A stretch of 60,885 bases of DNA from the IMG/VR virus record IMGVR_UViG_3300048591_000686, positions 1 through 60,885 of that record, one strand, 5' to 3'. How positions within the stretch are numbered: position 1 is the first letter of the stretch; each line of letters starts with the position of its first letter. Positions 23,652 through 60,823 of this stretch are shown here, one piece after another. This stretch comes from a virus (taxonomy: Duplodnaviria; Caudoviricetes). The notes under the pieces are model-generated. The model was not told the DNA's origin, did no database searches, and saw only the letters and a program-made list of their open reading frames with translations. The position numbers and the translations under genes were made by a program.

Positions 23652-23726
23652 AGGAACACAGTGTTCCTCACCCCATGCTACGCTGTCCATATCGGGCGGC
23701 GATTTTTGCGTTTCAGGGAGGCGAGA

Positions 23727-24035
23727 GTGAGCAGAGAACCGGTAGTCAGTGCGCAGGCGATTGCAGCGGCGGTGCAGGCTGCTATCATGGCGATTGTGGC
23801 GATGGCGGCGTCTTTGGGGTGGATCGCCATTAACCCCGAACAGATGGGCGCGGTGGAACGGGCGCTCGCCGCGTTGGGCGCGCTGGCCGTGTTGGTTGTG
23901 CCGCAGATTCTAGCGGCTGTGTGGGCGCGCAATCAGGTCACGCCGGTCGCCAACCCGCGCACGGAGGACGGGCAGGCAGGCGTGATTGTGCCGGTGGCCG
24001 TGGCGCAGGCGTCCGGTATGTTGGAGTTGGAATAG
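23727..24035 (+). CDS. Holin-like membrane protein
   Basis: REPV..two TM segments..WARNQVTP, typical of phage holin-like proteins; GGAGG SD. Confidence 0.65.
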   Translation: MSREPVVSAQAIAAAVQAAIMAIVAMAASLGWIAINPEQMGAVERALAALGALAVLVVPQILAAVWARNQVTPVANPRTEDGQAGVIVPVAVAQASGMLELE

Positions 24036-24285: not shown

Positions 24286-24481
24286 CACACCCACCGCACC
24301 GAAGGCGCTGGCCCCTCACGAACTGCGCACGGTGGCGATGCCGGACCTGCGCACGCCGGACCAGCGCCACGCCGACGACATGGCCGCGCTGACGGCGCGC
24401 ATTGATTTACTGGAGGCGGCCATCGTGCGGCAAGCGGATGTGTTGCAGGTGCTGATGTTGCGCCTGGATGATAGGACGTAG
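24278..24481 (+). CDS. Hypothetical protein
   Basis: AGGAGG SD; coiled-coil C-terminus. Confidence 0.55.
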   Translation: MHDTPTAPKALAPHELRTVAMPDLRTPDQRHADDMAALTARIDLLEAAIVRQADVLQVLMLRLDDRT

Positions 24482-24485
24482 GGCG

Positions 24486-24857
24486 ATGGCGCGGCGGGAA
24501 TACAGCGACGAACTAAAGGCGCAGGTCATGGCGGCATTGCTGGCTGGCCAGAGCGTTTCGTCCACCGCGCAGGCGTACAAGATCCCAAAAGGCACAGTGA
24601 GCAGTTGGCGCAAGGCAGCCTTGGGCAAGGTCGCGGAGGGTGCGGTCGAATCCGACGCGACCCAAAAAAGCACAACGCTAGACGATCTGCTGCAAGGCTA
24701 CGTTGAAACAAACCTGGTAACGTTACGTGAACAGTCTCAGTTCTTCCGAGATAAAGAGTGGCTCAAACGGCAGCAGGCGTCCGAGCTTGCAGTCCTTCAC
24801 GGGGTGCTTGCCGACAAAACAGTTCGGATTCTCGAAGCATACGGCAATGCAGGATAG
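24486..24857 (+). CDS. terS: Terminase small subunit (HTH)
   Basis: YSDELKAQ..GQSVSSTAQAYKIPKGTVSSW HTH; overlaps the terL start. Confidence 0.75.
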   Translation: MARREYSDELKAQVMAALLAGQSVSSTAQAYKIPKGTVSSWRKAALGKVAEGAVESDATQKSTTLDDLLQGYVETNLVTLREQSQFFRDKEWLKRQQASELAVLHGVLADKTVRILEAYGNAG

Positions 24858-27495
24858 TAGGGGCAAAGCTGAGGATGACGCCTGTTCCAGCCTCCTGGCC
24901 TTCACCCTCTACACCTACCCCACCTACCAGGTCAATTGGCACCACCGTGTTATCTGTGAACATTTAGACGATTTTGTAGCTGGCAAAATTAAGCGGCTGA
25001 TGGTTTTTGCGCCTCCCCGCAGTGGCAAGTCGGAACTCGTGTCGAGGCGGCTGCCGGCGTTCATCCTAGGGCAAAGACCCGACACAACAATTATCGCTAC
25101 CAGTTACGGTGCGGACCTGGCCAGGCGCATGAATCGCGACGTTCAGCGCATTATGGATGAAGATGCTTACCGCAAACTGTTCCCCGATACGAAGCTGTGG
25201 GGTAAGAACGTGCGTTCCGACGCGCAGGGCTCATGGCTGCGCAATTCTGATATGTTTGAGGTGGTAGGCCATCGGGGCTACTACCTGGGGACGGGCGTTG
25301 GGGGGAGCATAACGGGCAGTGGTGCGCATTGTTTAACGGGAGAAACTAGCGTAAGAACTGAAATGGGTAACATTGCTATAAGTAACCTATTCATGTTACA
25401 ATACCATCCAAGGGTGTGGGCATTCGACCACGAATCAAATGCTCCCGTCTTGCGAAGGATTGTGGCGGTCAAGGAGAGCTATAGCGATGACATCCTCGAA
25501 ATCGTTACCGTCAGTGGAAGAAGTATTAAAGCAACTGCCGAGCACCGTTTCTACGTACATGGACGCGGATACCAAGAGGCGGCGCTTCTCTGTCCAGGGG
25601 ACCAAATCCAAGCTGTCGAGATCGAACAAGACGTGTGGGATTTGCGGAAAGACCAAGGGAACGGAAAGCCGCGGCACGATGTGCAAAGATTGCTACATGC
25701 GAATCAGGGCCATCAAGGTATCATTGGCCTGCGCATGGTGCGGCAAGGAGTTCGAGCGCCCTTTGTACGTACACGAAAAGTCCTTAAAGCACGGAAGGCA
25801 AGAGGCTTTCTGCTCCAAGGCTTGTCTGTGCGCCAACAACAATTACAAGAAGGCCGTTGCGGCAAATCGCACCTGCCTTCATTGCGGTACTCTCTTGGTT
25901 GCTACGCGCGGCCGATACTGTTCAGCAGCCTGCAAGGCGGCCTCAGCAAAGAAGAGGAAAGAGTTAGAGGATCGTACTTGCCCTTGGTGCGGAGCAACGT
26001 TTTCGCCGGCAACAAGTCGCAGGCAGTATTGTTCCAGGGCGTGCGCGAATGCCGCTCATTCAGTACGGATGCGCGGCAGGGGAAACTCGCACTTCAAAAC
26101 GGGGACCAGCTACGCGAAATGGTTTGCGGAAATGCGCCCGTTGATTATGGAGCGCGACGAGCATCGTTGCGTGGTGTGCCAGACGTCGGAACGGATGAAC
26201 GTCGTTACGTGGAAGGACCAAGAAGTAGATCGCTCGAACCTAATTATTCATCACATCAACGAAGACCCCACCGACAATACCCCCCAGAATCTGGTCACGC
26301 TGTGCAAGACTTGCCATGCCGTGCACCACAAGTCGGCACAGACACCGTGGCCGTGGTTAGGCGTCTATGCACAGGTAAAATCCCAGTCTATGACATCCAA
26401 GTGGAAGGGACTCACAACTTCTTTGCGGAAGGTGTACTCACCCACAACTGCGTAATCATCGACGATCCTGTTAAGAACCGCAAAGAGGCCAATTCACCCA
26501 CCTACCGGCAATCCGTCTTTGAGTGGTATACCTCTACCCTATACACCCGCCTGACTCCTGACGGGCAAATCCTGCTGACCGTGACCAGATGGTCAGAAGA
26601 TGACCTGGCAGGCCGCCTACTGGCGCTCTCTAAATCCGACCCCGAAGCTGACCAGTGGACCACGCTGATATTGCCGGCGGTTTCCGAAGAACCTATCGCC
26701 CCCTACGATGAACGCAAAGAGGCCGGCAAGCCGTTGTGGGCAGACCGTTGGGGTATCGACAAGCTGCGCACCATCGAACGCACCGTCGGCTCCCGCGACT
26801 GGGCCAGCCTCTACCAACAGCGCCCCGCACCGGACGAGGGCGAGATCTTCAAACGCCACCACTGGCGCTACTGGCAGCCGCGTGGGGCCAACCTGCCGCC
26901 GGTCACGGTGACGATGGGGGACGGGTCCGTCATCGAAGTGGAGCCGGTGGAGCTGCCGGCCCGTTTTGACGAGCTGCTGCAATCCTGGGACATGGCGTTC
27001 AAGGACACGGCCGGCTCCGACTTTGTGGCCGGCATGGTGCTGGGGCGTTTGGGTGCGGATAAATTCATACTCGACTACGCCAACGACCGCATGGACATCG
27101 TGGCATCTATGGACGCCGTGACGCACTGGGCGATCAAGTGGCCCAAAGCCATCGCCAAGCTGATCGAGGACAAAGCCAACGGGCCGGCGGTCATCCAGAT
27201 GTTGCGAAAGAAGATGGCGGGATTGATCCCGCGCGAACCCCAGGGCGGCAAAGTCAGCCGCGCCTACGCTGCACAGCCCGAGGTGCAAAGCGGTAACGTG
27301 TACCTACCCCACCCCCACATCGCCCCCTGGACGGCGCAATTCATCGCCAACGCCGCCGCCTTTCCCAACGCGGCCCACGACGACGACGTAGACGCATTTA
27401 CGCAGGCGATCATCTACTGGCAGGAGGCCGGGTCAGTCGCCACGGCCCCGGCGCAGGTCACGAGTCAGGCGACGATACAGGAGATGTTTGGATGA
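24847..27495 (+). CDS. terL: Terminase large subunit containing an intein
   Basis: PPRSGKS Walker A, TSYG, IIDDP Walker B, TRW..DDL.G, YQQRP, SWDMA, IEDKANG, FP...HDDDVDAFTQ. Confidence 0.95.
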   Translation: MQDSRGKAEDDACSSLLAFTLYTYPTYQVNWHHRVICEHLDDFVAGKIKRLMVFAPPRSGKSELVSRRLPAFILGQRPDTTIIATSYGADLARRMNRDVQRIMDEDAYRKLFPDTKLWGKNVRSDAQGSWLRNSDMFEVVGHRGYYLGTGVGGSITGSGAHCLTGETSVRTEMGNIAISNLFMLQYHPRVWAFDHESNAPVLRRIVAVKESYSDDILEIVTVSGRSIKATAEHRFYVHGRGYQEAALLCPGDQIQAVEIEQDVWDLRKDQGNGKPRHDVQRLLHANQGHQGIIGLRMVRQGVRAPFVRTRKVLKARKARGFLLQGLSVRQQQLQEGRCGKSHLPSLRYSLGCYARPILFSSLQGGLSKEEERVRGSYLPLVRSNVFAGNKSQAVLFQGVRECRSFSTDARQGKLALQNGDQLREMVCGNAPVDYGARRASLRGVPDVGTDERRYVEGPRSRSLEPNYSSHQRRPHRQYPPESGHAVQDLPCRAPQVGTDTVAVVRRLCTGKIPVYDIQVEGTHNFFAEGVLTHNCVIIDDPVKNRKEANSPTYRQSVFEWYTSTLYTRLTPDGQILLTVTRWSEDDLAGRLLALSKSDPEADQWTTLILPAVSEEPIAPYDERKEAGKPLWADRWGIDKLRTIERTVGSRDWASLYQQRPAPDEGEIFKRHHWRYWQPRGANLPPVTVTMGDGSVIEVEPVELPARFDELLQSWDMAFKDTAGSDFVAGMVLGRLGADKFILDYANDRMDIVASMDAVTHWAIKWPKAIAKLIEDKANGPAVIQMLRKKMAGLIPREPQGGKVSRAYAAQPEVQSGNVYLPHPHIAPWTAQFIANAAAFPNAAHDDDVDAFTQAIIYWQEAGSVATAPAQVTSQATIQEMFG
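25330..26448 (+). mobile_element. Intein (373 aa) in TerL
   Basis: GAH|CLTGET; block B ATAEHRF; VYDIQVEGTHNFFAEGVLTHN|C, immediately before Walker B. Confidence 0.93.
25487..26455 (+). CDS. HNH homing endonuclease with Zn-finger repeats, overprinted in the +1 frame within the TerL intein
   Basis: AAGGAG SD at 25471; CxxCG..(F/Y)CS..C repeats; ERD..RCVVC..IIHHI..D..DN...NLVTLCKTCHAVHH. Confidence 0.88.
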   Translation: MTSSKSLPSVEEVLKQLPSTVSTYMDADTKRRRFSVQGTKSKLSRSNKTCGICGKTKGTESRGTMCKDCYMRIRAIKVSLACAWCGKEFERPLYVHEKSLKHGRQEAFCSKACLCANNNYKKAVAANRTCLHCGTLLVATRGRYCSAACKAASAKKRKELEDRTCPWCGATFSPATSRRQYCSRACANAAHSVRMRGRGNSHFKTGTSYAKWFAEMRPLIMERDEHRCVVCQTSERMNVVTWKDQEVDRSNLIIHHINEDPTDNTPQNLVTLCKTCHAVHHKSAQTPWPWLGVYAQVKSQSMTSKWKGLTTSLRKVYSPTTA

Positions 27496-47997: not shown

Positions 47998-48082
47998 TGT
48001 CAGTTGCCGGTCAGTAACAATGATGATTACAGGAGTATGATAGAGATGCGACAATATCCAACCGAAGTGAAAGGCCTTTTGT

Positions 48083-48376: not shown

Positions 48377-51117
48377 CGACGGCGAGGCGGGCAGCAATCC
48401 TCACACTGCTCGCCATCCTCATCGCCCTTGCGCTGCTTCCCGCGGCCGCGCAGGCACAGACGCACGATTGCACCATCGCCACCGACGCGGCGGGCAATGT
48501 GACGCTGAATTGCACCCCGAAGGCCACGGCTACCCCTGAGCCGCCCCCGCCGCCGCCGCCTACCGTCACCCATACGCCCACGGCAACACCGACGCTGACA
48601 CCGACAACGCAGCCGACTGACACGCCCACGGCTACCCCTGACGCGGCTCTGACGGGCAACGTCGCCAACGTGCCCCTGCTGCTAGATGCGCGCTCCGGTG
48701 ACACGCGGCTGGATGCCAACAACATGAGCATTGTGCGTTGGGGCACGGTGTCACCCGCAGGCGGCTACGGGCAACTGCGCATTATCGGGCGCGCCGAGGG
48801 CGTCATGGCCTATTTGCAGGTAGTCTCCCCCCGCACGCGCGACACGGTGACGGTAACGCTGAACGGGCGCACCTACCCCATTGCCGCGGGCAGCGATACA
48901 TGGGACGTGCGTAACCGCTGTGACGGGGCGGGCTGTAGGGGTTGGACTGCGTTTCGTGTCATACCGTGGGCTGAACTTGGCGGCGCGCCTGCTGAGGGTG
49001 ACAGGTGGGCACTCACGGCGGGCGAATGGGCCGGCGTGCTGCGTTGGGGCCTGCCTGACTACGCGGGCGCACCTGGGCAGCATGTGGTGAGTGTGCCCCT
49101 GACTGCCGACGCTATGACGGGCGGGGGAACGGACTGCGGCGCACCGGCGCACCCTGCCTATTTCCCCACCTGGGGCACGCTGACGTGGGGCGCGTCTCCA
49201 TATGCCAACGTGCAAACGCAATGGGACATTGCCGATTGGCCGTGCTACGCGGACTATTTCGCCGCGTGGGACATGCCGCCACTGCCGGAGGGCGCAACGG
49301 TGACGGGCGCAACGCTGACCATGCACCAGTTTGGCAACCCCGGTTACGGGCCGGGCTACGCCGAGGACGGCACAAAGGACACCGTAATACAGGTGTACGA
49401 CGTGGCGACGCCGCTTGACGAACTTGGGATAGGTTGGGATAACGCGCCGCGCATGGGGGAGAACATCGCCCGCACGGTGGTGCATCCCATCCCCGCCACA
49501 TGCCCCGGTGCGTTCTGCGATCCCGCCATCCCCTACGCGTTTGACGTGACGGAGGCGGTACGCAGGGCACAGGCTGACGGGCGCGGCTCGGTGACGGTGG
49601 GGCTGTACACGGCGGCGGGGCAGTACCACAGCGGTAAGTATTTTTGGAGTCGCGAGGGCAAGACGCCGCCCGTCGTGACGATTGCCTACACGCTACCGGG
49701 GGAGGACACGACGCAATGGACGCCAACACCGACGCCGCCGCCATCCACCGCGACGGCTACACCTGTGCCCGAGGCGACGTCTGGTGCGCCTATTGCCTCG
49801 CCTACGCCACAACAGACGGGCAGGACGTACTACATCTCCCCAACGGGCAACAACACCAATGCCGGCACTACTATCAATGCGCCGCTGGGCACCTTTGCAC
49901 GGGCATGGCTGCGGCTCCAGCCCGGTGACACGCTCATCCTGCTGGACGGCACCTACACCCCCACCACAACGGGCGTCATCCAACCCAACGGGCGCAACGG
50001 CGAACCGGGTAGGCCCATCACGATCAAGGCGCTGAACGACGGCGCAGCGACGATTGACGGGCAGGGGATGGCCATCCCCGCCAAACTGGGCGACAACTGG
50101 CCGGGGCCGGTGGGCGACTGGTACGTGCTGGAGGGCGTGGTGCTGCGCAACGGGCTCGACCAGGTACTCCAGATTCGCGGCAACAACAACGTGGCGCGGC
50201 GGGTGAGCGTCTATGACGGCGACGTGAACGACAACACGACGCTGATCCAGATCATGGGGCGCAACAACCTCGTCGAGGACGTGATCGCCGCCGGCGACGG
50301 ACGCTACATGGTCAACGTCTACAACACGACCGGCAACACGGTGCGGCGCGCGTTCACGATGTGGGGCCAGTGGGACGGGCGGCACTTCTGCGGGGTGACG
50401 TGGCCCAACGGCAACCACCTGGGGGTCTATAACTCCAGCAACACGACGGTCGAGAACGTGATCGCCTACGGGCGCGCGCTGACCGGCATCTTCATCCAGG
50501 CCAACCACGAAAACGCCAGCGCCAACAACAATGCCATCCTGGGCAGCATGGCCGTCAACATCGGGCGCGACTACGGCGGCGGCGACTGGACGTTCGGGGC
50601 GCCGCAGATGTGGCCAACGTCGCGGCCAGGCCCCACCAGCGATAGGTTCACCAAGGCCGTCTGCGACAACAAATTGACCAACTGGGCAGACGGCGGCCAC
50701 CGCACCGGGTTCAGCCTATGGGGGCAGGGCACGTTGCAGGACAACGTATTCCGCGACGTGCTGGCAGTGGGCAGCTACGGCCTCGGCATGAGTGTGGCGC
50801 GGCCATCGGGGCCGGGGTCGGTGCGCACTGTGCTCGACCACCTGACGCTCTTTGGCAACGGGGCGTATGTGCTGCACTGGGAAAGCAAGCTCGGCGGGCA
50901 GATATACCTCGATGGGTCCGACGTGACCGTCACCAACAGCCGCATCGAGGGCAGCCCCTGGGCGAACCAGGGCGAGGGCGCACGGCTGCAATATCGGTAT
51001 GTCGATAGGGTGCTGACTGACACTCCACTCCTGCCCTGGCCTATGGAGGGCAGGGCGCGGGCAGAGTTGGGGGTGAGTGTGGAGAAAATCATAGAGCAGT
51101 ACGGGGGTGCGCAGTGA
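48376..51117 (+). CDS. Secreted modular protein: DNRLRE/CBM-like domain + right-handed beta-helix (polysaccharide lyase-like); start codon uncertain
   Basis: Signal RRAAILTLLAILIALALLPAAAQA; P/T linkers; LPEGATVTGATLTM; TYYISPTGNN.N.G....PLGT......LQPGDTLILLDGTY; Asn-ladder repeats. Confidence 0.78.
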   Translation, partial: TTARRAAILTLLAILIALALLPAAAQAQTHDCTIATDAAGNVTLNCTPKATATPEPPPPPPPTVTHTPTATPTLTPTTQPTDTPTATPDAALTGNVANVPLLLDARSGDTRLDANNMSIVRWGTVSPAGGYGQLRIIGRAEGVMAYLQVVSPRTRDTVTVTLNGRTYPIAAGSDTWDVRNRCDGAGCRGWTAFRVIPWAELGGAPAEGDRWALTAGEWAGVLRWGLPDYAGAPGQHVVSVPLTADAMTGGGTDCGAPAHPAYFPTWGTLTWGASPYANVQTQWDIADWPCYADYFAAWDMPPLPEGATVTGATLTMHQFGNPGYGPGYAEDGTKDTVIQVYDVATPLDELGIGWDNAPRMGENIARTVVHPIPATCPGAFCDPAIPYAFDVTEAVRRAQADGRGSVTVGLYTAAGQYHSGKYFWSREGKTPPVVTIAYTLPGEDTTQWTPTPTPPPSTATATPVPEATSGAPIASPTPQQTGRTYYISPTGNNTNAGTTINAPLGTFARAWLRLQPGDTLILLDGTYTPTTTGVIQPNGRNGEPGRPITIKALNDGAATIDGQGMAIPAKLGDNWPGPVGDWYVLEGVVLRNGLDQVLQIRGNNNVARRVSVYDGDVNDNTTLIQIMGRNNLVEDVIAAGDGRYMVNVYNTTGNTVRRAFTMWGQWDGRHFCGVTWPNGNHLGVYNSSNTTVENVIAYGRALTGIFIQANHENASANNNAILGSMAVNIGRDYGGGDWTFGAPQMWPTSRPGPTSDRFTKAVCDNKLTNWADGGHRTGFSLWGQGTLQDNVFRDVLAVGSYGLGMSVARPSGPGSVRTVLDHLTLFGNGAYVLHWESKLGGQIYLDGSDVTVTNSRIEGSPWANQGEGARLQYRYVDRVLTDTPLLPWPMEGRARAELGVSVEKIIEQYGGAQ

Positions 51118-52035: not shown

Positions 52036-53895
52036 GTGGCGATCAGGATTATCTCGTACAGCAATCAGGTACTCTACTGGCCCGCGTCTGCTGGGCTGAG
52101 CATGAGCGAATTTACCGCCAGCGCGTGGATCAGATTCCATACGATGGCCGATTTTGCTTACCAGCAAGGCGGGCCTATTCGGGGCTCGACTCAGCCAGGC
52201 ATGGGCGTGTATCTGTTTCGGCCCAGCTCTACATACTACTGGTCACTGGGCGACAACACAAGCGATAACGCGGCGACGAGCGGCCCGCGTGTCGGCGTCT
52301 GGTATCACGTCGCCTGGACGCGCAGTGGAAACACCAACGACCGGCTCTGGATCGACGGCGCGCCGGTTGTCGGGCCGCTCAACCTGCTCGAATCTGGAGT
52401 AGATGCGCAGATGAGCCTGGGGTTTGACCCCTATGCCGCCCCTGCCAACTTTGATTTTACGGGCGTCAAAATCTGGAGTGCAGAACTCACCCAGCGGGAG
52501 ATCAACCAGGAGCGCACGCAGCTCGCACCGGTGCGGCGGGCCGGGCTGTTTGCCTGCACGCCTGCGCCGCATGTTGCCGATGTGCGCGACATCAGCGGCA
52601 GCAACCGCACGCCAACTACAACCGGCGCACTGACTACGGTCGACGGGCCCAACGTGCCCTGGACAACGGACTGGCAGCGGCGGCTGTGGATGGTGCCGTT
52701 CGTGGTGCCGGCGGGGGGCGGGGGCGGCAACGATGCGCTGACTGCCAACGACATCACGACGGGAGCGCCTGCACTGGGTGCACCTACGTTGGCCCAGACG
52801 CACGCACTCGCGGCGGTGGGTATCACAACGGGCGCGTCTGCACTGGGTGCGCCTACGTTGGCCCAGACGCACGCGCTCGCGGCGGTGGGTATCGCGACGG
52901 GCGCGCCTGTGTTGGGGGCGGCGACGCTGGCGCAGACGCACGCGCTCGCTACTGTAACGTTGGTGACGGGCGCACCGACGCTCGGCAGCCCCACCGCCAC
53001 CCAGGGGCACGCGCTGACGGCTGTAACGTTGGTGACGGGCGCACTGACGCTAGGCGCGGCGACGCTGGCGCAGGTGCACGCGCTGACGGCTGTAGCGTTG
53101 GTGACAGGTGCACCGACACTTGGCAGCCCCACCGCCACCCAGGTGCATGCGCTCGCGGCCATCGCAATCACAACCGCCGCGCCAACCATCGATGCCCCCA
53201 CCGTCACCCAGGTGCACGCACTGACTGCCAACGGTGTCACGGCAGGCGCGCCAACCATCGATGCCGCTACCATCGCACAGGTGCACGCACTCAGCGCGGC
53301 GGGTGTCGTGACAGGAGCACCAACGCTCGGCGCGGCGAGCATGGGCGGCGAGACGGCGCTAATTGCCGACGGCATTACGGCAAGCGCACCAACACTCGGC
53401 AGCCCCGCCGTCACCCAGGCGCACGCGCTCACCGTCGTAACACTGGTGACGACCGCGCCGACGTTGAGCAGCCCCACCATTACGCAGGTGCACGCACTCG
53501 CAGCGGTGGGCATCGTCACCAGTGCGCCGGTGTTGGGTGCGCCCTCCATGGTGGGCGAATCGGCGCTCATTGCGGTGGGCATCGATGCGGGGGCCGTGGT
53601 GCTGGGTGCGCCCGCCATCGGGCAGGTGCACGCGTTGGCGGCGGTGGGCATCGATGCGGGGGCGGTGGCGGTGGGCGCAACTACCATCAATCAGACCCAC
53701 ATCCTGACCGCAATCCTCCTGGTGGCAGCCGCGCCGACGTTGGGTACGCCCGCGCTGGACCGCAGCGGCACGGTGACGCCCGCCAGCAGGACCTATGTAG
53801 TCGAGTTTGAGGACCGGACCTATGTAGTCGAGTTTGAGGACCGGACCTATGTAGTCGAGTTTGAAAATCGGACCTACACAGTAACAGGAGAGTAG
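52036..53895 (+). CDS. Side fibre: LamG/concanavalin-like domain + 23-aa repeat shaft
   Basis: FTASAWI, WYHVAW, LWIDG, KIWS.EL...EI; many QxHALxAxxxxTGAPxLGxPT repeats. Confidence 0.8.
   Translation: MAIRIISYSNQVLYWPASAGLSMSEFTASAWIRFHTMADFAYQQGGPIRGSTQPGMGVYLFRPSSTYYWSLGDNTSDNAATSGPRVGVWYHVAWTRSGNTNDRLWIDGAPVVGPLNLLESGVDAQMSLGFDPYAAPANFDFTGVKIWSAELTQREINQERTQLAPVRRAGLFACTPAPHVADVRDISGSNRTPTTTGALTTVDGPNVPWTTDWQRRLWMVPFVVPAGGGGGNDALTANDITTGAPALGAPTLAQTHALAAVGITTGASALGAPTLAQTHALAAVGIATGAPVLGAATLAQTHALATVTLVTGAPTLGSPTATQGHALTAVTLVTGALTLGAATLAQVHALTAVALVTGAPTLGSPTATQVHALAAIAITTAAPTIDAPTVTQVHALTANGVTAGAPTIDAATIAQVHALSAAGVVTGAPTLGAASMGGETALIADGITASAPTLGSPAVTQAHALTVVTLVTTAPTLSSPTITQVHALAAVGIVTSAPVLGAPSMVGESALIAVGIDAGAVVLGAPAIGQVHALAAVGIDAGAVAVGATTINQTHILTAILLVAAAPTLGTPALDRSGTVTPASRTYVVEFEDRTYVVEFEDRTYVVEFENRTYTVTGE
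53789..53876. repeat. 27-bp tandem repeat (~3.3 copies) encoding RTYVVEFED
   Basis: GGACCTATGTAGTCGAGTTTGAGGACC units. Confidence 0.9.
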
Positions 53896-53898
53896 ACA

Positions 53899-54270
53899 AT
53901 GGCATATCTCAATGATCGTGTGCTTGACAATGGACTGACCGTGCTCGACACGGAGGCATCCCACCTCTACATCACGAGTGCGGAGGCGACCACCTACACG
54001 CAGGCGGCGACCACCTACGCACTCGGCGTCAAGGCGACGCCGACGGTGGGCGCACCGGCCGCGCGCGCACCCAGCGGGCGCAAGGTCACGGTGAGCGCCA
54101 TCACTGACGGCACGGTGAGCGCCACCGGCACCGCGTCGCATTATGCGTTGGTGGATCAGACCAACAGCCGGTTGCTGGCCGCGGGGCCGCTGGGTGCATC
54201 GCAGGCGGTCACGTCGGGCAACACGTTCACGCTGACCGCGTTCGACATCGGCATCCCCGGCCCGGCCTAA
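53899..54270 (+). CDS. Fibre-associated virion protein
   Basis: TGTASHYAL..GNTFTL.AFDI. Confidence 0.65.
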   Translation: MAYLNDRVLDNGLTVLDTEASHLYITSAEATTYTQAATTYALGVKATPTVGAPAARAPSGRKVTVSAITDGTVSATGTASHYALVDQTNSRLLAAGPLGASQAVTSGNTFTLTAFDIGIPGPA

Positions 54271-54281
54271 CGGAGGCGCAC

Positions 54282-54563
54282 ATGCCGCGTGCATTTACGC
54301 AGGACCCGCAGGCCGTGTTGGACTACCAGTTCGACTGGGCGGGGGAGCGCCCCTGGCTGGTGGCGGGGGACACTATCAGCGACGCAACCGTCACCGTGAC
54401 GGCCGGGCTGACGATTGAGGAAACCGTAATCGCGGCCACGACGGTCACGGTTTGGCTCAAAGGCGGCACGGTGGGCGCGTCCTACAATGTGACGTGTCAC
54501 ATCGTCACCGCGGGCGGGCGGGAGGATGAGCGCACCGCCACAGTGACGATAATGGATCGGTAA
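54282..54563 (+). CDS. Fibre-tail adaptor-like protein
   Basis: QDP.AVLDY.FDW..WL..GDTI..VWL.GG..G..Y.V.C.I.T.GGR. Confidence 0.75.
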   Translation: MPRAFTQDPQAVLDYQFDWAGERPWLVAGDTISDATVTVTAGLTIEETVIAATTVTVWLKGGTVGASYNVTCHIVTAGGREDERTATVTIMDR

Positions 54564-54587
54564 CAAGGCGCGCCGCACTCACAGGCG

Positions 54588-55562
54588 ATGGGTGCGGCGC
54601 TCATTTCGGAACGGGGCGGTATGACGAAACGGGCGGGCGCGCGGGCGAACGCGCTACAGCTAAGGACTCTGTTGATTGCGCCGCGGTCGGATTTGGCGAA
54701 CGCGGACGCAGAGATGCAGCGCATTGTGAACGCGCTGCATCCCGAATGTGTGCTGGGGACAGTCACCACGTCGGACGTGCTCGACGCGGTGCAGGCCGAC
54801 GCATACAACGTGATCTGGTTTTTGGGGCACAGCGGCGCGGATGGGCTGCAACTAGCGGATGGCACGCTCAGCGCGGCGCACCTGGCGCAGATGCTCCGGC
54901 AGGCGCCGCCGTCGCTGGTGGTGCTCAACTCCTGCAGCAGTTTCCACACGGCCATCCAACTGCATGACGACCTGCAATGCGCCATCGTGTGCACGGTGTT
55001 GGATGTGCCCGACCTCGATGCCTACATCACCGGAGCGCTGTTGGCGGGCGCGCTGGCGCAGGGCCTGGACACGGCGCAGGCGTATCAGGTGTCACGGCCC
55101 GCGGCAAACCGGCAGTATATCCTGCTCAACGGGTCGGTGCGGCTCAACGGCACGGACGAAATCGACGATACGCGGCGGCTCATCCTGCGCACAGCCGCGG
55201 AGTTGCAGCGCGGCGTCCAGGACATGCACAGCGAAATCGGCGGGGTCATTCGCACCACGTCGGAAATGCAGCGGGCGCTCGATGCCATGCGCCGCGATGT
55301 GGCGGCGGTGCGCGAGGAGCAGACGCGGGTGCGCGGGGAGTTGGCGGCGGGGCCCTCGCGCTATCAAGCCGCGCTCACCCGCCCGCGCATGTACGCGTGG
55401 CTGGTGGGCTTCGTGCTGTTTTTGGCGGGCATGGGCATCTGGGACAGCCGCGATGCCATGCACACGCCGCCCGCGGTGGCCGGTGCGTTTGCTGCGACCG
55501 TGTTTGCGCTCGCAGCGTGGGCATTTATCTACGGGATCGGGTTCCGCGTGGACAGGCGGTGA
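54588..55562 (+). CDS. CHAT (caspase/HetF-like) protease + coiled coil + two C-terminal TM helices
   Basis: DLANADAEM, NVIWFLGHS (His 54828), LVVLNSCSS (Cys 54933). Confidence 0.82.
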   Translation: MGAALISERGGMTKRAGARANALQLRTLLIAPRSDLANADAEMQRIVNALHPECVLGTVTTSDVLDAVQADAYNVIWFLGHSGADGLQLADGTLSAAHLAQMLRQAPPSLVVLNSCSSFHTAIQLHDDLQCAIVCTVLDVPDLDAYITGALLAGALAQGLDTAQAYQVSRPAANRQYILLNGSVRLNGTDEIDDTRRLILRTAAELQRGVQDMHSEIGGVIRTTSEMQRALDAMRRDVAAVREEQTRVRGELAAGPSRYQAALTRPRMYAWLVGFVLFLAGMGIWDSRDAMHTPPAVAGAFAATVFALAAWAFIYGIGFRVDRR

Positions 55563-55663
55563 GGCGGCGCGGAAACGCCCGCCATTGCTGACGGGCGTCG
55601 GGCCGGGGATGCTATCGCCGGGGTGGTAGGAGTATTCTAGCACGGCCCCGGCGCGTAGGCTGA

Positions 55664-55999
55664 TTATTCGCGGACGGTGGTTAGGGGGCGCTTAACCTCC
55701 ATACTAACGGGCGGCTCGTCAAACCATTCGGGCGTGCCAAGCCCAAAAGGATAAGTGTCCGGCTCCTGTTCGCTGGTGTCTCCGCACCGGTAATACCAAA
55801 CAGCCCCGCCCTCCTGCCGGGGAGCATACCAACCCGACCCAACCCACATAATGATGCTGTCCATTTTAATCTCCTGTTTGTAAACTCGGTCGATAACTAC
55901 AGTAAGTGTCTCTGTCTGTGACGTGCCCCACTGCTGCATTAATGCGTCCAACTGGCGGACGGTCAAATCGCTGGCTCGAAAATTGATTTGCTGCTTCAC
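55664..55999 (-). CDS. RHH-domain protein
   Basis: KQQINFRASDLTVRQLDALMQQWGTSQTETLTVVIDRVY. Confidence 0.75.
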   Translation of the reverse strand: MKQQINFRASDLTVRQLDALMQQWGTSQTETLTVVIDRVYKQEIKMDSIIMWVGSGWYAPRQEGGAVWYYRCGDTSEQEPDTYPFGLGTPEWFDEPPVSMEVKRPLTTVRE

Positions 56000-56328
56000 A
56001 CTTCTACCTCCACCTTTTCAACAATAACCGGCTCATCAGTCACCAAGAACATTGCTTCGCCGTCTGGGTACTCCGGGTCGATTACCACTTCGTAGCCGTC
56101 TGGTACGTCGAAAGAAAACACCGTGTTCATCTCCATACCCCGGTTATCTTCAGCAAACCAGATTGCATATTTCAGCGCCACGAAACCATACACGCCGGTA
56201 ACGTTCTGCCCCTGGAGCGTGTCACCCTCACCCGCCTTGCACGTTCCGTTATTGGTGCTGTTGGGGACCAAGCCATGCTCTAGGATTGATTCTTCATTGT
56301 CGATTGGGCTTACGTGGTACAGTTTCAT
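55996..56328 (-). CDS. Putative ADP-ribosyltransferase-fold protein (Tpt1/DarT-like N-terminus)
   Basis: LYHVS...N.ESILEHGL.P...GVY....A..FA. Confidence 0.6.
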   Translation of the reverse strand: MKLYHVSPIDNEESILEHGLVPNSTNNGTCKAGEGDTLQGQNVTGVYGFVALKYAIWFAEDNRGMEMNTVFSFDVPDGYEVVIDPEYPDGEAMFLVTDEPVIVEKVEVEV

Positions 56329-56370
56329 GGTTCGCTCGCTTCGTTCGTTCGTGATTGCCCTATGTCGCTA

Positions 56371-56389
56371 GTATAGCACAATGCTATAC
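56371..56389. promoter_or_regulatory. Palindromic operator over a minus-strand -10 (TATACT)
   Basis: GTATAGC-acaat-GCTATAC. Confidence 0.65.
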
Positions 56390-56418
56390 AATCTGTATCC
56401 CCCCAAAATGGAGAATTT

Positions 56419-56504
56419 ACCTTAAAATTTCGCGCCGTTCTCGCGGCACAAAAACGCCCCGGCTGCGGCGGCCGGGGCGGGGTGGGGTTGGGGGGTGGGG
56501 GCTA
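56419..56504 (-). repeat. Terminator-containing intergenic cassette, copy 1
   Basis: Near-identical to 57713-57802; minus-strand CGCCCCGGC..GCCGGGGCG-TTTTT. Confidence 0.85.
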
Positions 56505-56705
56505 TTCTCCCCTGACTACCTTCGCCACGACGCGGCGGCTACCTGTGTAACTGATGTCGTCCAGATACGCTGCCGGGATTGCCCGATGGTCCCCGTCGTT
56601 ATAGGCGACAATGAGATACACGGCGGCACTGCTGCCCCACTTGCCGGAGTGTCGCTCCTTCGCTTCTGCAATGGCTTCTTCTTTGGTCGTGATGCGCTCG
56701 CTCAT
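56502..56705 (-). CDS. Hypothetical protein
   Basis: AAGGGG SD. Confidence 0.65.
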   Translation of the reverse strand: MSERITTKEEAIAEAKERHSGKWGSSAAVYLIVAYNDGDHRAIPAAYLDDISYTGSRRVVAKVVRGE

Positions 56706-56714
56706 GATTTCCCC

Positions 56715-56957
56715 TTATCTCACCAACTTAATTGTATCGCCTGTTTCAGTGCTGCGCAGCAGGATTGCCGACCTGCTGACCTCTACGACCTGCCACAAAT
56801 CCGAAGGCCAAACGGTTTGGCCTTGCGCCGTCACCGTCGTTACGAAAAATTGGTCATCAGCCTTGACAGTAACGCGCTTGGTTGGGCGACCGGCCCCGAT
56901 GCGCGGCCCGCCAAGGCCATTGCCCGTCATGCCCTTTTTGCCTGCCATGTTACTCAC
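56715..56957 (-). CDS. Small protein with GG.R.GAGRP DNA-binding motif
   Basis: GGPRIGAGRP. Confidence 0.65.
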   Translation of the reverse strand: MSNMAGKKGMTGNGLGGPRIGAGRPTKRVTVKADDQFFVTTVTAQGQTVWPSDLWQVVEVSRSAILLRSTETGDTIKLVR

Positions 56958-57303
56958 TCATCCTATCGTAACAATCGGGGCAGCTTGTGCCCTGACTGGC
57001 ACTCATTACCAATGTGCGCTCTACACTGTGCCCGCAACTACAGCGCACCAATTGAGGCGGGGGCTGCGAGGCGCGCTTGCGACGAATGTAGCCAACGCCA
57101 TGATCGTAGTAGTAGTTGGGCGAGTCGCACCAAGCGACCTTTACCCCGTTCTGCAACATCTCGACAACCCGCGCCTCGGTGACGTTATTGCGCCGCGCCG
57201 CCGCTGCGATTGCGGCGTTCAGTGTTTCAACTGCGGCGGGCTTGTAGCTGATTCCGAAACTGCCGACATACCCATCAGTGATTTCATATTCGCTGGCGTT
57301 CAT
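56950..57303 (-). CDS. Protein with C-terminal Zn finger
   Basis: CSCGH...CPDCY. Confidence 0.7.
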   Translation of the reverse strand: MNASEYEITDGYVGSFGISYKPAAVETLNAAIAAAARRNNVTEARVVEMLQNGVKVAWCDSPNYYYDHGVGYIRRKRASQPPPQLVRCSCGHSVERTLVMSASQGTSCPDCYDRMSE

Positions 57304-57306
57304 CTG

Positions 57307-57627
57307 TTATTTCCCCCATCGGCTGCGGTGGCCTGCGTTGCGGCGGTTCAAATATGCGTTGACCTGCTGAATTGCGGCGTCTACGTTGTCAAACCCGATC
57401 TTGCCCATCTGCCCGCTGAACGCTGCGCCGGTCATGCGCTGGAGTTCTGCCAGAATCGCATAGTCGCGGGCGTAGCGGTTGACCAGTTCGGGGGCGGGAG
57501 ATGCGTGCCCCATGCGCTGCAAGGTCGCGACTGCGGCGGCGGTGTCGGGTTGGGCAGCGGCAATTGCATCATTTACCAACTGCGCTATGTCGTGTTTCTC
57601 GCCTCGGATTGTTCGCTTGGTGGTCAT
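57307..57627 (-). CDS. Hypothetical protein
   Basis: AAAGGGG SD, downstream of a promoter. Confidence 0.7.
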   Translation of the reverse strand: MTTKRTIRGEKHDIAQLVNDAIAAAQPDTAAAVATLQRMGHASPAPELVNRYARDYAILAELQRMTGAAFSGQMGKIGFDNVDAAIQQVNAYLNRRNAGHRSRWGK

Positions 57628-57675
57628 TGTTCGTCCCCTTTGCTAATGATTCGTGATTGCCTGTCTATGTTTCTG

Positions 57676-57704
57676 ATTTTAGCACAATTCAGAATAAGTT
57701 GCAA
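57676..57704 (-). promoter_or_regulatory. Sigma70 promoter with flanking TTCTGA/TCAGAA inverted repeat
   Basis: TTGCAA-17 nt-TAAAAT, TG-extended. Confidence 0.7.
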
Positions 57705-57712
57705 TAGGGCTA

Positions 57713-57802
57713 ACCTTAAATTTTCGCGCCGTTCTGCGGCAACAAAAACGCCCCGGCTGCGGCGGCCGGGGCGGGGTGGGGGGTGGGGCGGGGTGGGGGC
57801 TA
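57713..57802 (-). repeat. Terminator-containing intergenic cassette, copy 2
   Basis: Near-identical to 56419-56504. Confidence 0.85.
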
Positions 57803-58090
57803 GATCAACCCTTGCGCTTCCAGTCGCTGCCGAAACCATTGCGAGTACGTAGTCCCCGGCGCTGGTTTGGGTAGCTGCGCATCCATCATCGACACCAGCA
57901 TGTCGAGCTGGCTGTACGCTAGTTCAAGTTCGTTGATGCGCGCCTCTGCCGTTTCGGCGCGCTGGCGCATCCGCTCGTACTCGTCAGCCTCGACGGGGGC
58001 CTCCGTGCTGGTGTAGTTAAACTGCGCATTGTGCGGTGGCGGGTCTTCCGTGTTTGCTGCCAGCGCGTACCAAGTTATGGGTATTCCCAT
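57800..58090 (-). CDS. Hypothetical protein
   Basis: AAAGGA SD; coiled coil. Confidence 0.65.
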   Translation of the reverse strand: MGIPITWYALAANTEDPPPHNAQFNYTSTEAPVEADEYERMRQRAETAEARINELELAYSQLDMLVSMMDAQLPKPAPGTTYSQWFRQRLEAQGLI

Positions 58091-58148
58091 GATCGCAATT
58101 CCTTTCGAGTGAGTATGCCGTTTATGCGCGGAGGTGTTTTCTTTCGTA

Positions 58149-58361
58149 CTAAGAGACACTCAGACCTGCGTGAGTCATGGAGACAACAACAGTTTGGCCA
58201 AAGATCTCTGATGACAATTCGATGTAATTGATAGGGGTATCGGAAGGCAGTTCATTGTCGCGCAGGAACTGATTCACAATGTCACTCAATGCCTGCCAGG
58301 TTAACTCACCGACAACTTGGTATTCATCAGCAATGCCGTTCCGCCTTTGGTCTGTGTCCAT
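58149..58361 (-). CDS. Hypothetical protein
   Basis: AGGAGG SD before ATG 58361. Confidence 0.6.
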   Translation of the reverse strand: MDTDQRRNGIADEYQVVGELTWQALSDIVNQFLRDNELPSDTPINYIELSSEIFGQTVVVSMTHAGLSVS

Positions 58362-58477
58362 TACACTATCCTCCTGCTGTGATATACTGCATCTATGAAT
58401 CCGAATACCGGCCATCCGGCGCAGTAGGATTCACCCGGCCCCGGCTAGTCCGGGGCTTTGCTTTACAGCCTCTCCAT

Positions 58478-58849
58478 TTACGTGACTGCGCCAAGTTGCC
58501 GCCTCATGTGTTCGAGCGTAGCAAAAATTTCTTTGTCGCTCTCGGTCGGCTCGATAGGTCGGCAGTAGATGCACGTCCGCCAATCTACGCCCGTCATATC
58601 GTGAAGGTACCCGTAGGGAGTAGAGCCGCCGTCCCACCCCCAGGACTCACCATCTACAAATGGTTCCTTCTCGAAGTAGTGCCCGGCCCCGTTAGCATCG
58701 ATAGCGTACCAGTTATCGATTTGTAGATTTACGAACGAGAATAGCTGCTCAACCGTTAATACAACTTGTGGATGCGGGTAAATCTTACTCGATGGTGGAA
58801 TGGTCTTGTTTGTCATCTCCATATCTCCGCGTGTAACTGTTATTCTCAT
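58478..58849 (-). CDS. Hypothetical protein
   Basis: WYAIDANG..YFEKEP..W..DWR pattern common in phage small proteins. Confidence 0.6.
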   Translation of the reverse strand: MRITVTRGDMEMTNKTIPPSSKIYPHPQVVLTVEQLFSFVNLQIDNWYAIDANGAGHYFEKEPFVDGESWGWDGGSTPYGYLHDMTGVDWRTCIYCRPIEPTESDKEIFATLEHMRRQLGAVT

Positions 58850-58977
58850 TCGGGGGAGGACGGTCCTCCCCCGCTTTCCCTACCGCCGCACCTGCCCATC
58901 CACCAGCGCGAGCATGACGATTAGCACCACCAGCATGGCGATCTGTTTGTGGTCCTGGGTGGCGTAAATGGTGCGTT

Positions 58978-59658
58978 TCATAGGTCGCCTTCCCACTCCT
59001 GCGTCTCGCCTGTGATCCGAAACACGCGCCTGGTTTCTTGTTCCTCGCCATCCCGCGGCATTGCCAGCACAATTATAGGTGGCTGATAGTAGGGCGGTGG
59101 GCCTGACGGCACGTTAATTGTCTGCGGCTCTCGCCGGGCCAGTTTCGTGGATACCGCGACCGGCAGCAGACCACGCTCGTCCAGCCACGCAGCGGCGGTG
59201 GCCTCCGGTATCCACTGGCGGCGGCTGTAGTCGGCAATGCCGCGCACGCCGTTGCGGGTCTCGATGCGGGCGGTGGCATTGTCGCCCAGCACCTGTGTTA
59301 TATAGAGTCGCAGCACGTCGCACGTTAGCTCGTGGCGGCGCGTCGTGTGCGTCTCGGTGGACGCGTGGCGCTTGCTGCGTTCCTCCTGCCAGCGCACCAC
59401 GGCCCACCCGCCGATCCCCACCACGGCCACGGCGCTGAGGCCGCCCATGCCCCACATGCCCCAGGTGCGGGCAGTCTCGCCCCACTGCGCCGCCTGCACG
59501 CGCTGCGTCTCCTGGCGCGCCTGCTCTATCGCGGTTTTGGCCTGCGTGTACGCCCTGTACTGGGCGGTCATCTCGGGCGACGTGATGGCGTTGGCAAATA
59601 TGGCATAGATCGCCACACCAAACAGGGTAACAAAGGCCATGTATGTCGCGCTTCTCAC
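58978..59658 (-). CDS. Two-TM membrane protein
   Basis: GTG 59658; two hydrophobic segments separated by a helical region. Confidence 0.7.
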   Translation of the reverse strand: MRSATYMAFVTLFGVAIYAIFANAITSPEMTAQYRAYTQAKTAIEQARQETQRVQAAQWGETARTWGMWGMGGLSAVAVVGIGGWAVVRWQEERSKRHASTETHTTRRHELTCDVLRLYITQVLGDNATARIETRNGVRGIADYSRRQWIPEATAAAWLDERGLLPVAVSTKLARREPQTINVPSGPPPYYQPPIIVLAMPRDGEEQETRRVFRITGETQEWEGDL

Positions 59659-60278
59659 TTGCCTCTCCCCTTTCCCTGTACCCAAATGACAAAGGCCATC
59701 AGGGCCACACTCACGAGGACGATGCCGCCCGCGGTGACGGCGGTTTTGATGCCCTCCACCGTGTCGTCAACGCGCTGCCGCGCCGCGTCCCACGGCATTT
59801 CGGCGCCCTCGAACGACGGCCACTGCCAGCCCGTCGCCTCTACGACCGGCTCCCCAGGAGCGGACTTGGCGGCCGGCGCTTTCGGCGCATCCTCCCACGG
59901 CAGCCGCACCGCGTCGATACGGTCCCACAATGACGGCTCGCCGGCCTGCGTGGTCTGCGTCGGCTTGCCGGTCTGTGGGACGGTGACGAACAGATAGCCG
60001 ATGCTCACCACGATCACCCCCAGCATCAGCCAGGAGATAAGCCCCCGCATGTTGATGGCGGGGGGCCACGATGCGCTGCGCGGGCGGGGCCGCGGCTGCG
60101 CGGGCGGGGCGCTGCGCCAGTCGGGCGCGGGGGCCGCGTCGCCGGGCAGATTCAACACGATCACTGTGATGTTGGGCTGCGTCGGGTGCGGTCCGTAGCC
60201 TGCCACCGGCACGCCGAGGCGCGCATAGTTGCGCAGTGCCCAGTCTGTCTGCCAGCTCTCTACCTCTTCGGTTCTCAA
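59655..60278 (-). CDS. Two-TM membrane protein
   Basis: TTG start after GGAGG; GLISWLMLGVIVVSIGYLFV and GGIVLVSVALMAFVIW. Confidence 0.7.
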   Translation of the reverse strand: MRTEEVESWQTDWALRNYARLGVPVAGYGPHPTQPNITVIVLNLPGDAAPAPDWRSAPPAQPRPRPRSASWPPAINMRGLISWLMLGVIVVSIGYLFVTVPQTGKPTQTTQAGEPSLWDRIDAVRLPWEDAPKAPAAKSAPGEPVVEATGWQWPSFEGAEMPWDAARQRVDDTVEGIKTAVTAGGIVLVSVALMAFVIWVQGKGRGK

Positions 60279-60823
60279 AATGCCACCTCCATTGCTTCGA
60301 TATTGCGCACAGTTGGCGAGGGCGACGCGTAGCCCATGCCCGCCGGCCGCCGCGTGCGCGGGGGTGCGACCTCCGTCCAGCCGTCCAGGGTGCCGCGCAT
60401 GTCGGCGCGCTCCGTGTCGGCGCGCAGCGGGCCGATCACCGGGCCGGGATTTTGCAGCGCGTGCCATGCGATGTAGGCGAGCGCCAGCCCGCCCGCGAGG
60501 ATGCCGATCCACCACAGCAGATTCGACGCGCCGAGCAGCAGCGCGGCGAGAAAACAGACGGTGGACGCGGCGAGCAGGGCGGTGGATGCCAGCATGTCCC
60601 GCATCAACCACGCCGGCGCAGTGGCGCGGTTGATGCGCCGCACGGCTGCAAACCACAGTGCCCATCCCACTACCTGCTCTATGCCTGCAATGATTGTTGC
60701 GTCGATGTTGGCCTCCCGTTTTCCCTCTACTGCCCTGCCCCGAAATGCGCCTGACTTGCCCTCTACCTCTGGACTTGCCCACTTGCCGGACAAGGGGCAA
60801 GTGTTTTTAATCATCATCTTCAT
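60275..60823 (-). CDS. Three-TM membrane protein (start uncertain)
   Basis: Three hydrophobic segments; TTGA overlap with the next gene. Confidence 0.65.
   Translation of the reverse strand: MKMMIKNTCPLSGKWASPEVEGKSGAFRGRAVEGKREANIDATIIAGIEQVVGWALWFAAVRRINRATAPAWLMRDMLASTALLAASTVCFLAALLLGASNLLWWIGILAGGLALAYIAWHALQNPGPVIGPLRADTERADMRGTLDGWTEVAPPRTRRPAGMGYASPSPTVRNIEAMEVAF

Follow-up and report, generated by a model that had tools for sequence, protein, structure and literature searches.

A mostly viral family of tail-anchored CHAT proteases in phage late operons and its possible role in host lysis

Introduction

Host lysis by tailed phages is generally ascribed to a muralytic endolysin, which a holin releases or activates. 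Here we describe a gene that may take the endolysin's place in a group of tailed phages. It closes the late operon of IMG/VR virus record IMGVR_UViG_3300048591_000686 (Duplodnaviria; Caudoviricetes), whose 60,885 nucleotides were analyzed at full length and are referred to below as the window. The identity of its product as a CHAT protease is secure, and we conclude from sequence and modelled structure that it is a minimal member of this class, predicted to be catalytically competent and tethered to the membrane by its C-terminus. It belongs to what is, judging by its sequences, a large, unannotated and mostly viral family of short CHAT proteins. Because members often occupy lysis-cassette slots, often have holin-like partners and occur in genomes that mostly lack recognizable endolysins, we tentatively favour the explanation, which we hold to be plausible but short of probable, that they are lysis-cassette proteases working with holin-like proteins. 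A preliminary description of the window, made from its letters alone, had proposed a protease-based lysis or egress system or a prophage defence effector; what it observed is confirmed here and its interpretation is partly supported.

Results

Fold, catalytic dyad and membrane anchor

The protein matches the Pfam CHAT profile (PF12770) at amino acids (aa) 34-128 with 27.1 bits against a cut-off of 24 (E 3.4e-6), and its relatives match the same profile at 35-42 bits. An AlphaFold2 (AF2) model built on 27 relatives, with a mean predicted local distance difference test (pLDDT) score of 84.4, contains a complete caspase-type alpha/beta domain at aa 27-180. The best VIA-align match of this model is the SAVED-CHAT protease 8tl0_D (Z 17.2, root-mean-square deviation 2.1 A, 158 residues, 22% identity), and caspases, DdvA, Craspase, separase and legumain follow at Z 11-12, with the match covering aa 24-183; Foldseek agrees with VIA-align on the caspase-type fold (E 3.9e-8). 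The CHAT fold proposed in the preliminary description is thus borne out by profile, model and structural comparison.

The intact His-Cys dyad that had been read from the letters corresponds to His81 (WFLGHSG) and Cys116 (VLNSCSS), in the CHAT arrangement of a His after strand 3 and a Cys after strand 4. For the CHAT domain, 8tl0 is the only PDB sequence match (E 5e-4), and the profile alignment places WFLGHSG and LVVLNSC on its FIGHG and VVLNAC (E 5e-4). The His and Cys of 8tl0 that align with the dyad are 47 residues apart, the same spacing as H375 and C422, the SAVED-CHAT catalytic pair, whose mutation is stated to have abolished activity (10.1101/2023.06.23.546230). Both residues are invariant in all 27 aligned close relatives (alignment A1), and across 130 diverse representatives (alignment A2) only H81, G86, N114 and C116 are invariant. 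Of 191 family proteins, 187 have both His and Cys; in the remaining four, which are fragments cut short at the N-terminus, the positions are gaps and not substitutions.

The CHAT domain is followed by a long helix that weakly matches coiled-coil proteins such as Lpp (E 0.07-0.19) and phrog_27574 (E 0.0055). The coiled coil noted earlier is upheld as a predicted long helix that may or may not oligomerize; a homodimer prediction scored 0.07, which is evidence in neither direction. The two transmembrane (TM) helices that had also been noted are found both as an AF2 hairpin (aa 265-286 and 295-317) and as hydropathy cores (268-286 and 296-314). No N-terminal signal-like segment past the first beta strand and no signal peptide were found, and in the 27 relatives the hairpin has about two basic residues on each outer side against about one in its loop. 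Because of the missing signal peptide and this charge distribution we infer that both ends of the hairpin lie inside (N-in/C-in) and that the protease stands on a helical stalk in the cytoplasm. The same two features make it unlikely that the enzyme cuts envelope proteins from outside, as had been envisaged.

Genomic contexts and holin-like neighbours

Loci encoding the family were grouped into 22 independent contexts, several of the loci being related to one another. Homologues at random positions would have counted against the preliminary description; all 22 contexts, however, fall in late or structural parts of phage DNA, with no cellular defence island among them. Thirteen correspond to classic lysis-cassette slots: seven lie at the end of the tail-fibre block (the window, L004, L008/L010, L049, G563, L069 and L079) and six directly upstream of the small or large terminase gene (TerS/TerL; L071, L078, L086, L090, L091 and L092).

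In ten contexts (L049, G563, L071, L078, L079, L083, L085, L088, L090 and L091), the CHAT gene is directly followed on the same strand by a small gene that often overlaps the CHAT stop codon and whose product has 2-3 TM segments, by prediction, and ends in a short basic stretch. This association, which could not be seen from the window itself, strengthens the lysis reading. By way of background, small open reading frames (ORFs) with at least two TM segments make up 16 of the 441 called ORFs (3.6%) in 21 loci, and nine of these 16 are the CHAT neighbours. The small partners fall into several unrelated or barely related groups, as holins do; no holin family matched any of them. Members with two TM helices of their own (the window, L004, L008, L067/L068 and L087) are without a small TM neighbour.

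The holin-like gene that had been reported near position 23727 of the window was recovered as ORF 23661-24035. Among the 68 called ORFs of the window it is the only small one with two or more predicted TM segments, and it has a 61% identical homologue at the same pre-terminase position in relative G563; it has no family match in Pfam or PHROGs.

A calcineurin-like phosphoesterase (phrog_7339, 'DNA repair exonuclease') is the second frequent neighbour of the family (L004, L008/L010, L085, L086 and L092), and the window is without a copy. We read this recurrence as regional co-location.

Endolysin searches and the host cell wall

The preliminary description had found no endolysin in the window, and profile scans agree: Pfam to E 0.1 gave no lysin family in 64 called and 105 further ORFs (these including all frames across gaps), nor did PHROGs at E 0.1 in 64 and 35 ORFs. 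No lysin Pfam family was found in the whole 53.5-kb contig G001:C68, and no lysin by Pfam or PHROGs in the G463 prophage (about 28 kb, bounded by integrases). Five IMG/VR records bearing CHAT genes, four of them rated 100% complete, gave no match to 13 common lysin families (Amidase_2, Amidase_3, GH25, GH19, Phage_lysozyme, Muramidase, SLT, M15_4, VanY, M23, NlpC/P60, CHAP and Glucosaminidase). As a positive control, Muramidase (PF11860) was recovered in one record where PHROGs had matched it. Seven CHAT-bearing phage genomes, four of them rated 100% complete, are thus without a recognizable endolysin.

An endolysin could have been sought in a missing segment of the record, which is linear and has a CheckV completeness estimate of 61%. 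However, the homologues of the two window ends adjoin each other in two relatives, G001:C68 and G563, as traced by the truncated PIG-L-like ORF 1-678 (minus strand) and ORF 59658-60800. The window is therefore nearly complete despite the CheckV value, and the synteny leaves only a few hundred bases as a possible home for such a gene.

Several candidates for a hidden lysin were tried and rejected. The 192-aa ORF 3017-3592 gave only helix-turn-helix (HTH)-like leads in the Atlas, and two enzyme-sized ORFs beside holin-like genes in relatives gave no PDB sequence match. A match to phrog_971 ('endolysin') lies in the tape-measure protein, which has no lysin Pfam domain, and is read as the tape-measure part of phrog_971. 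ORF 1-678, which is truncated at the window end and kept at 58-60% identity in G001:C68 and G563, has a weak PIG-L/LmbE-like deacetylase match under the cut-off (E 0.0046), and PIG-L is not a lysin family.

It had further been pointed out that several Chloroflexota classes have little or no peptidoglycan, and this premise does not hold for the likely hosts. These are Caldilineales, and three genomes of the order carrying relatives, among them one titled Candidatus Caldilinea saccharophila, each have 4-7 penicillin-binding protein (PBP) transpeptidase and 4-5 Mur-ligase matches; in G001 and G463, PBP and Mur-ligase matches lie on one contig. These hosts encode peptidoglycan synthesis, and some wall-breaking activity is therefore needed.

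Size, origin and architectures of the family

A word-indexed search recovered 43 relatives of about 300 aa at 35-62% identity, and an exhaustive profile search recovered 1379 cluster representatives at E <= 1e-3, 178 of them at <= 1e-30; lengths range from 159 to 358 aa among the matches listed (the best 150 of the 1379). At least one C-terminal TM segment is predicted in 180 of 191 family proteins. The nearest ESM-Atlas clusters are CHAT proteins of 156-310 aa whose members are 71-100% viral, and the best BFVD match is a 264-aa unnamed viral protein. A locus scan succeeded with A3, a 10-sequence sub-alignment of the 130 sequences of A2; IMG/VR scans with the single proteins P0027 and P0005 gave no match, and a tblastn search of 50,697 GenBank phage records, with the window protein and two relatives as queries, was likewise empty. 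Cellular genomes rarely carry the short form, which was found in 1 of 401 sampled Chloroflexota genomes and, within the order to which the metagenome-assembled genome (MAG) titled Candidatus Caldilinea saccharophila belongs, in 6 of 151; each of these copies lies within phage-like DNA.

The anchor varies within the family. Some members have a single C-terminal TM helix and a tail of few residues, as in a classic tail anchor, and L070 has one TM helix followed by a Pro/Thr-rich tail. A permuted member, L071:9764-10747 (minus strand), begins with three TM helices and a further helix and carries its CHAT domain at the C-terminus, the family's parts having been put together independently in reverse order; a 2-TM gene comes next, and then the terminase genes. 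The closest cellular copy of the window gene, L026 (G001:C58), reaches 78% identity in its best segment; it lies on a MAG contig of 5.3 kb and is scattered over four frames, reflecting assembly indels or a decaying prophage copy.

Architectures without a C-terminal anchor, of about 350 aa or 540-1100 aa (L012-L025, L027-L043 and L050-L056), were left out of the context counts. L027-L043, from Actinomycetota and other genomes, form a separate family of about 350 aa that is common in Actinomycetota and combines a Lys/Arg/Glu-rich N-terminal coiled coil with a C-terminal minimal CHAT domain and no TM helix.

The predominance of viral members, together with soluble CHAT-only proteins of 156-179 aa in the ESM-Atlas clusters, could also be explained by a role in counter-defence or host takeover. 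Such a protease would act late or on entry and cut host proteins at the inner leaflet, for instance membrane-associated immune effectors or programmed-death proteases and their substrates, so that abortion is blocked before the virions are finished. Components of host immunity that phages have copied are often turned against it; the closest structural relative of the window protein is an immune SAVED-CHAT protease domain (Z 17.2 against about 12 for the others), and the position of the gene varies within late operons like that of an accessory gene. A counter-defence role leaves unexplained both the recurrent, often overlapping 2-3-TM gene downstream and the preference for lysis slots, and the protein matches no known anti-defence family and has no identifiable target. 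We consider this explanation unlikely.

A full-text literature search, which covered articles without their supplementary files, listed nothing on membrane-anchored CHAT proteases of phages, nor on tailed phages that lyse their hosts by means of a protease. A preprint only notes that one mycobacteriophage gene is annotated with a CHAT domain (10.1101/2023.05.30.542743).

Phage genome and neighbouring genes

The gene content marks the phage as a temperate siphovirus type. By Pfam and PHROGs, the window encodes a serine integrase (Table 1), an HTH repressor-like protein, a Prim-Pol/DUF927 primase, an intein-bearing helicase and an SNF2-methylase; its head genes are those for a portal, a MuF-like head protein and a protease-capsid fusion, and its tail genes encode two major tail proteins, a tape measure, and large fibre and depolymerase-like proteins. 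The CHAT gene closes the late block that the terminase genes open: it is the final plus-strand gene of the block, as reported earlier, and the next genes converge on it from the minus strand. The fraction of G or C at its third codon positions (GC3) is 0.84. An alternative start is possible at 54618 (the second ATG, Met11), where the N-termini of relatives align. The Gp77-like adaptor gene upstream is found in the same gene order in L004 and L049, and is 63% identical to the L049 copy.

Table 1. Coordinates of the CHAT gene, its parts and other features of the window.
Feature	Position	Strand	Evidence
Tail-anchored mini-CHAT protease gene (324 aa)	54588..55562	+	ORF, GC3, Pfam CHAT, family alignment, AF2 model
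CHAT/caspase-fold domain (aa 25-184); His81 at 54828-54830, Cys116 at 54933-54935	54660..55139	+	Structure and profile alignment
Long helix (aa 191-253), stalk or possible coiled coil	55158..55346	+	AF2 secondary structure
C-terminal membrane hairpin (aa 265-317), two predicted TM helices, short basic tail RVDRR	55380..55538	+	AF2, hydropathy, charge counts
Gp77-like fibre-tail adaptor (93 aa), upstream neighbour	54282..54563	+	PF23148, E 1.7e-26
123-aa late protein, two genes upstream of the CHAT gene	53899..54270	+	80% identical to L049:10572-10985, same position
Holin-like candidate ORF	23661..24035	+	2 predicted TM segments; upstream of small terminase gene
Late-block start: small terminase (HTH_23/DUF1804-like) and intein-bearing large terminase	24468..27495	+	Pfam/PHROGs
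Serine integrase	11202-12698		Pfam/PHROGs
End regions that adjoin in relatives	1-678 and 58981-60800	-	Synteny with G001:C68 and G563

The temperate gene set, with its serine integrase and repressor-like gene, also fits a superinfection-exclusion or abortive-infection moron, in which the protease and a small membrane partner, as a toxin/immunity-like pair or by blocking entry, would shield the lysogen or the infected cell from other phages. Two-gene membrane modules and operon ends next to early genes are typical of morons, and parts of the literature present CHAT proteases as typical of conflict systems. Against such a role, PADLOC gave no match for the CHAT protein, and no promoter-like site was detected in 53800-56400 (a promoter and terminator scan around the gene gave 0). 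The gene starts 24 nt past the stop codon of the adaptor gene, and in L002 and L067 the CHAT start overlaps or abuts the upstream late gene, which points to late rather than lysogenic expression; the uniformly late or structural contexts, with no cellular defence island among them, count against it as well. A moron is therefore, in our estimation, quite unlikely, and the defence effector in a prophage that had been proposed earlier finds no support: there is no PADLOC match and no defence-island context, and the gene is tightly packed into late operons. The scan also gave one terminator-like site, which lies within the CHAT gene itself and is not above shuffles, and GC-rich hairpins past the CHAT stop codon are not significant (z -1.2).

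Some further features of the window are worth recording. Inteins interrupt both the DEAD_2/Helicase_C_2 helicase (14974-18675) and the large terminase (24727-27495); both match Intein_splicing, and the helicase intein additionally has a LAGLIDADG domain. The terminases of relatives G563 and G564 are shorter and apparently intein-free (518 and 547 aa). ORF 30672-33260 (862 aa) joins a T4-type prohead protease (Peptidase_S77) to an apparent capsid protein and an Ig-like segment, and the counterparts of this fusion in G563 and G564 are 59-79% identical to it. ORF 33328-33822 (164 aa), which these two relatives also keep and which separates the capsid gene from an SU10-type adaptor gene, has a signal-peptide-like hydrophobic N-terminal segment; a secreted-looking product is odd amid head genes. 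The 1037-aa tail protein encoded at 48004-51117 has a CBM96 domain and a weak beta-helix (Chondroitinase_B) match, and is likely a polysaccharide depolymerase. The fibre protein encoded at 52036-53895 has a LamG-like N-terminal domain followed by many copies of a repeat of about 19 residues (..TLAQTHALAAVGITTGAP..) and terminates in three copies of RTYVVEFED; its repeats are common to the C68 fibre. Finally, a block of small minus-strand ORFs at 55664-58900 has a G+C content of 0.57-0.60 against about 0.65, has neither family matches nor homologues in close relatives, and looks like a recently acquired accessory region.

Discussion

Lysis-slot positions, recurrent holin-like partners and the missing endolysins lead us to favour, tentatively, a lysis-cassette role for the CHAT family. 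In the mechanism that we propose, in which topology, late co-expression, any lysis role and the target are all inferred, the protease would be made late and gather at the inner leaflet, tied there by its C-terminal hairpin, with a helix of about 60 residues holding the CHAT domain off the membrane. The family would act as the 'enzyme' gene of the lysis cassette. The holin-like partner in the window would probably be ORF 23661-24035, acting in trans, or the protein's own second TM helix could serve instead. Protease and holin-like protein together could then execute or time the breakdown of the envelope by cleavage of a membrane-proximal target. This may be the holin-like partner itself, acting as a protease-gated pore; a host protein for wall synthesis or autolysin control; or the peptides of the wall, reached after a breach of the membrane. 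The activation of a gasdermin-like pore former, which the preliminary description had considered, finds no counterpart in the window: no gasdermin family matched any of its 64 and 105 ORFs (Pfam).

A number of findings argue for caution about a lysis role, foremost the predicted orientation, the members in structural modules, an endolysin in one locus and a missing control. The CHAT domain should, on its sequence features, face the cytoplasm, and we know of no caspase-fold enzyme that cuts peptidoglycan. L085 has a canonical muramidase-type endolysin two genes upstream of its CHAT gene (phrog_1224 at 8.9e-39; PDB endolysin 7rum at 7e-19), so that mutual exclusion of CHAT genes and endolysins, as suggested earlier, fails in its strict form. 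The L085 CHAT gene (L085:3252-4114) is itself in two pieces, an ORF of 172 aa with the CHAT domain and, in a different frame, one of 114 aa with the helix and TM part. In L084, a second assembly, the match to the query is likewise confined to these first 162 residues. The test with 13 families does not cover every lysin and was without a positive control for GH19. The genomes compared were CHAT-bearing, and for phages of these hosts in general undetected endolysins may be the rule. G001:C50, a further phage contig from the MAG that contains C68, measures 12.9 kb and was too short to serve as a control, and G564, a relative without a CHAT match, ends inside a fibre gene, where the CHAT gene would come, and is not countable as CHAT-free. 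The window gene has no adjacent holin-like gene, the sole candidate lying 31 kb off, and the enrichment of holin-like neighbours (9 of 21 loci) has a crude binomial P of about 2e-8 that is overstated, some of the loci being related. Lastly, nine of the 22 contexts are not lysis slots: three are among head-tail connector genes (L067/L068, L087 and L089), two between the tape measure and distal tail genes (L081 and L088), one right after TerL (L002/L003) and three in other places (L070, L083 and L085).

The six context groups inside structural modules raise the alternative of a virion-associated protease, either packaged or tail-associated and inserting into the target membrane on ejection by means of its hydrophobic hairpin, or else a membrane-bound factor for the assembly or maturation of tail or connector. 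Ejection and tape-measure proteins carry hydrophobic segments, and the sites in question would suit such a factor, lying between head closure and tail terminator (L089), near the adaptor or Neck1 (L067/L068 and L087), after the tape measure (L081 and L088) and after TerL (L002/L003); in the window, too, the CHAT gene comes after a fibre-tail adaptor. We nevertheless judge a virion or morphogenetic role to be very improbable, as the window already has a prohead protease fused to its capsid gene (Peptidase_S77), the CHAT protein has no similarity to any PHROG structural family, and the holin-like partner and the pre-terminase positions are left unexplained.

The lysis-cassette reading could also be put in a stronger form, that a widespread group of tailed phages has swapped the muralytic endolysin for a tail-anchored caspase-like protease plus a holin-like protein, and that proteolysis drives the lysis of a peptidoglycan-walled host. 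We regard this version as rather doubtful. Were it true, it would constitute a third phage lysis route, next to holin-endolysin systems and to the single-gene lysis proteins known from small phages. If the protease contributes to lysis at all, phage egress would gain a proteolytic step or an entirely new route and would be linked to the caspase-type death proteases of bacterial immunity, and the protease would offer a new kind of lytic agent. If it is a counter-defence or exclusion protease instead, the family would still be the first such one carried by phages to have a clear gene partner that lends itself to testing.

Among characterized CHAT proteins, SAVED-CHAT (8tl0), which acts in a proteolytic cascade of type III CRISPR and cyclic-oligonucleotide-based antiphage signalling (CBASS), shares with it the protease fold and a dyad that aligns onto H375/C422; the phage protein, however, has no SAVED sensor and no defence locus, is one third the size, is encoded in a late operon and is predicted to be tethered to the membrane by a C-terminal hairpin. 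More generally, none of the hallmarks of defence CHAT proteins (a SAVED, TPR or NTPase sensor, a defence locus, or an EAD/STAND-CHAT arrangement) were found, the protein consisting only of CHAT domain, helix and TM segments. DdvA (8rot/8rw5; Z 11.9), a transmembrane anti-sigma factor, is likewise a membrane-anchored CHAT protein, and in its roughly 1000 aa it combines an anti-sigma domain in the cytoplasm and a single TM helix with a TPR-CHAT part in the periplasm, the active site of which is incomplete (PMC11506125); the phage protein lacks both the TPR and the anti-sigma domain and carries CHAT at its N-terminus, on what is predicted to be the cytoplasmic side. Craspase (Csx29 TPR-CHAT), separase, caspases and legumain (clan CD) share the core fold and the class of dyad geometry, but the phage protein lacks their regulatory domains (TPR, prodomains) and amounts to the bare fold plus an anchor.

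At the level of gene organization, two kinds of system offer parallels. In bacterial gasdermin systems, a CHAT or caspase-like protease is encoded beside a membrane pore-former that the protease activates, and the concept of a protease beside a pore-former may apply here as well; the phage systems differ in their small helical TM partners, in being viral and, as we suppose, expressed late, and in having no gasdermin among the window ORFs. In holin-endolysin cassettes the differences are that the putative lysis enzyme here is a caspase-fold protease with its own anchor and no muralytic fold, and that the holin-like gene is not adjacent in the window. The likeness lies in the same slots, after the tail fibres or before the terminase genes, in an enzyme-sized gene that in ten of 22 contexts stands beside one for a small 2-3-TM protein with a basic tail, and in the great diversity of those small partners. 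In these phages the endolysin's place beside holin-like genes is held by a mostly viral caspase-like family, in hosts that still build peptidoglycan.

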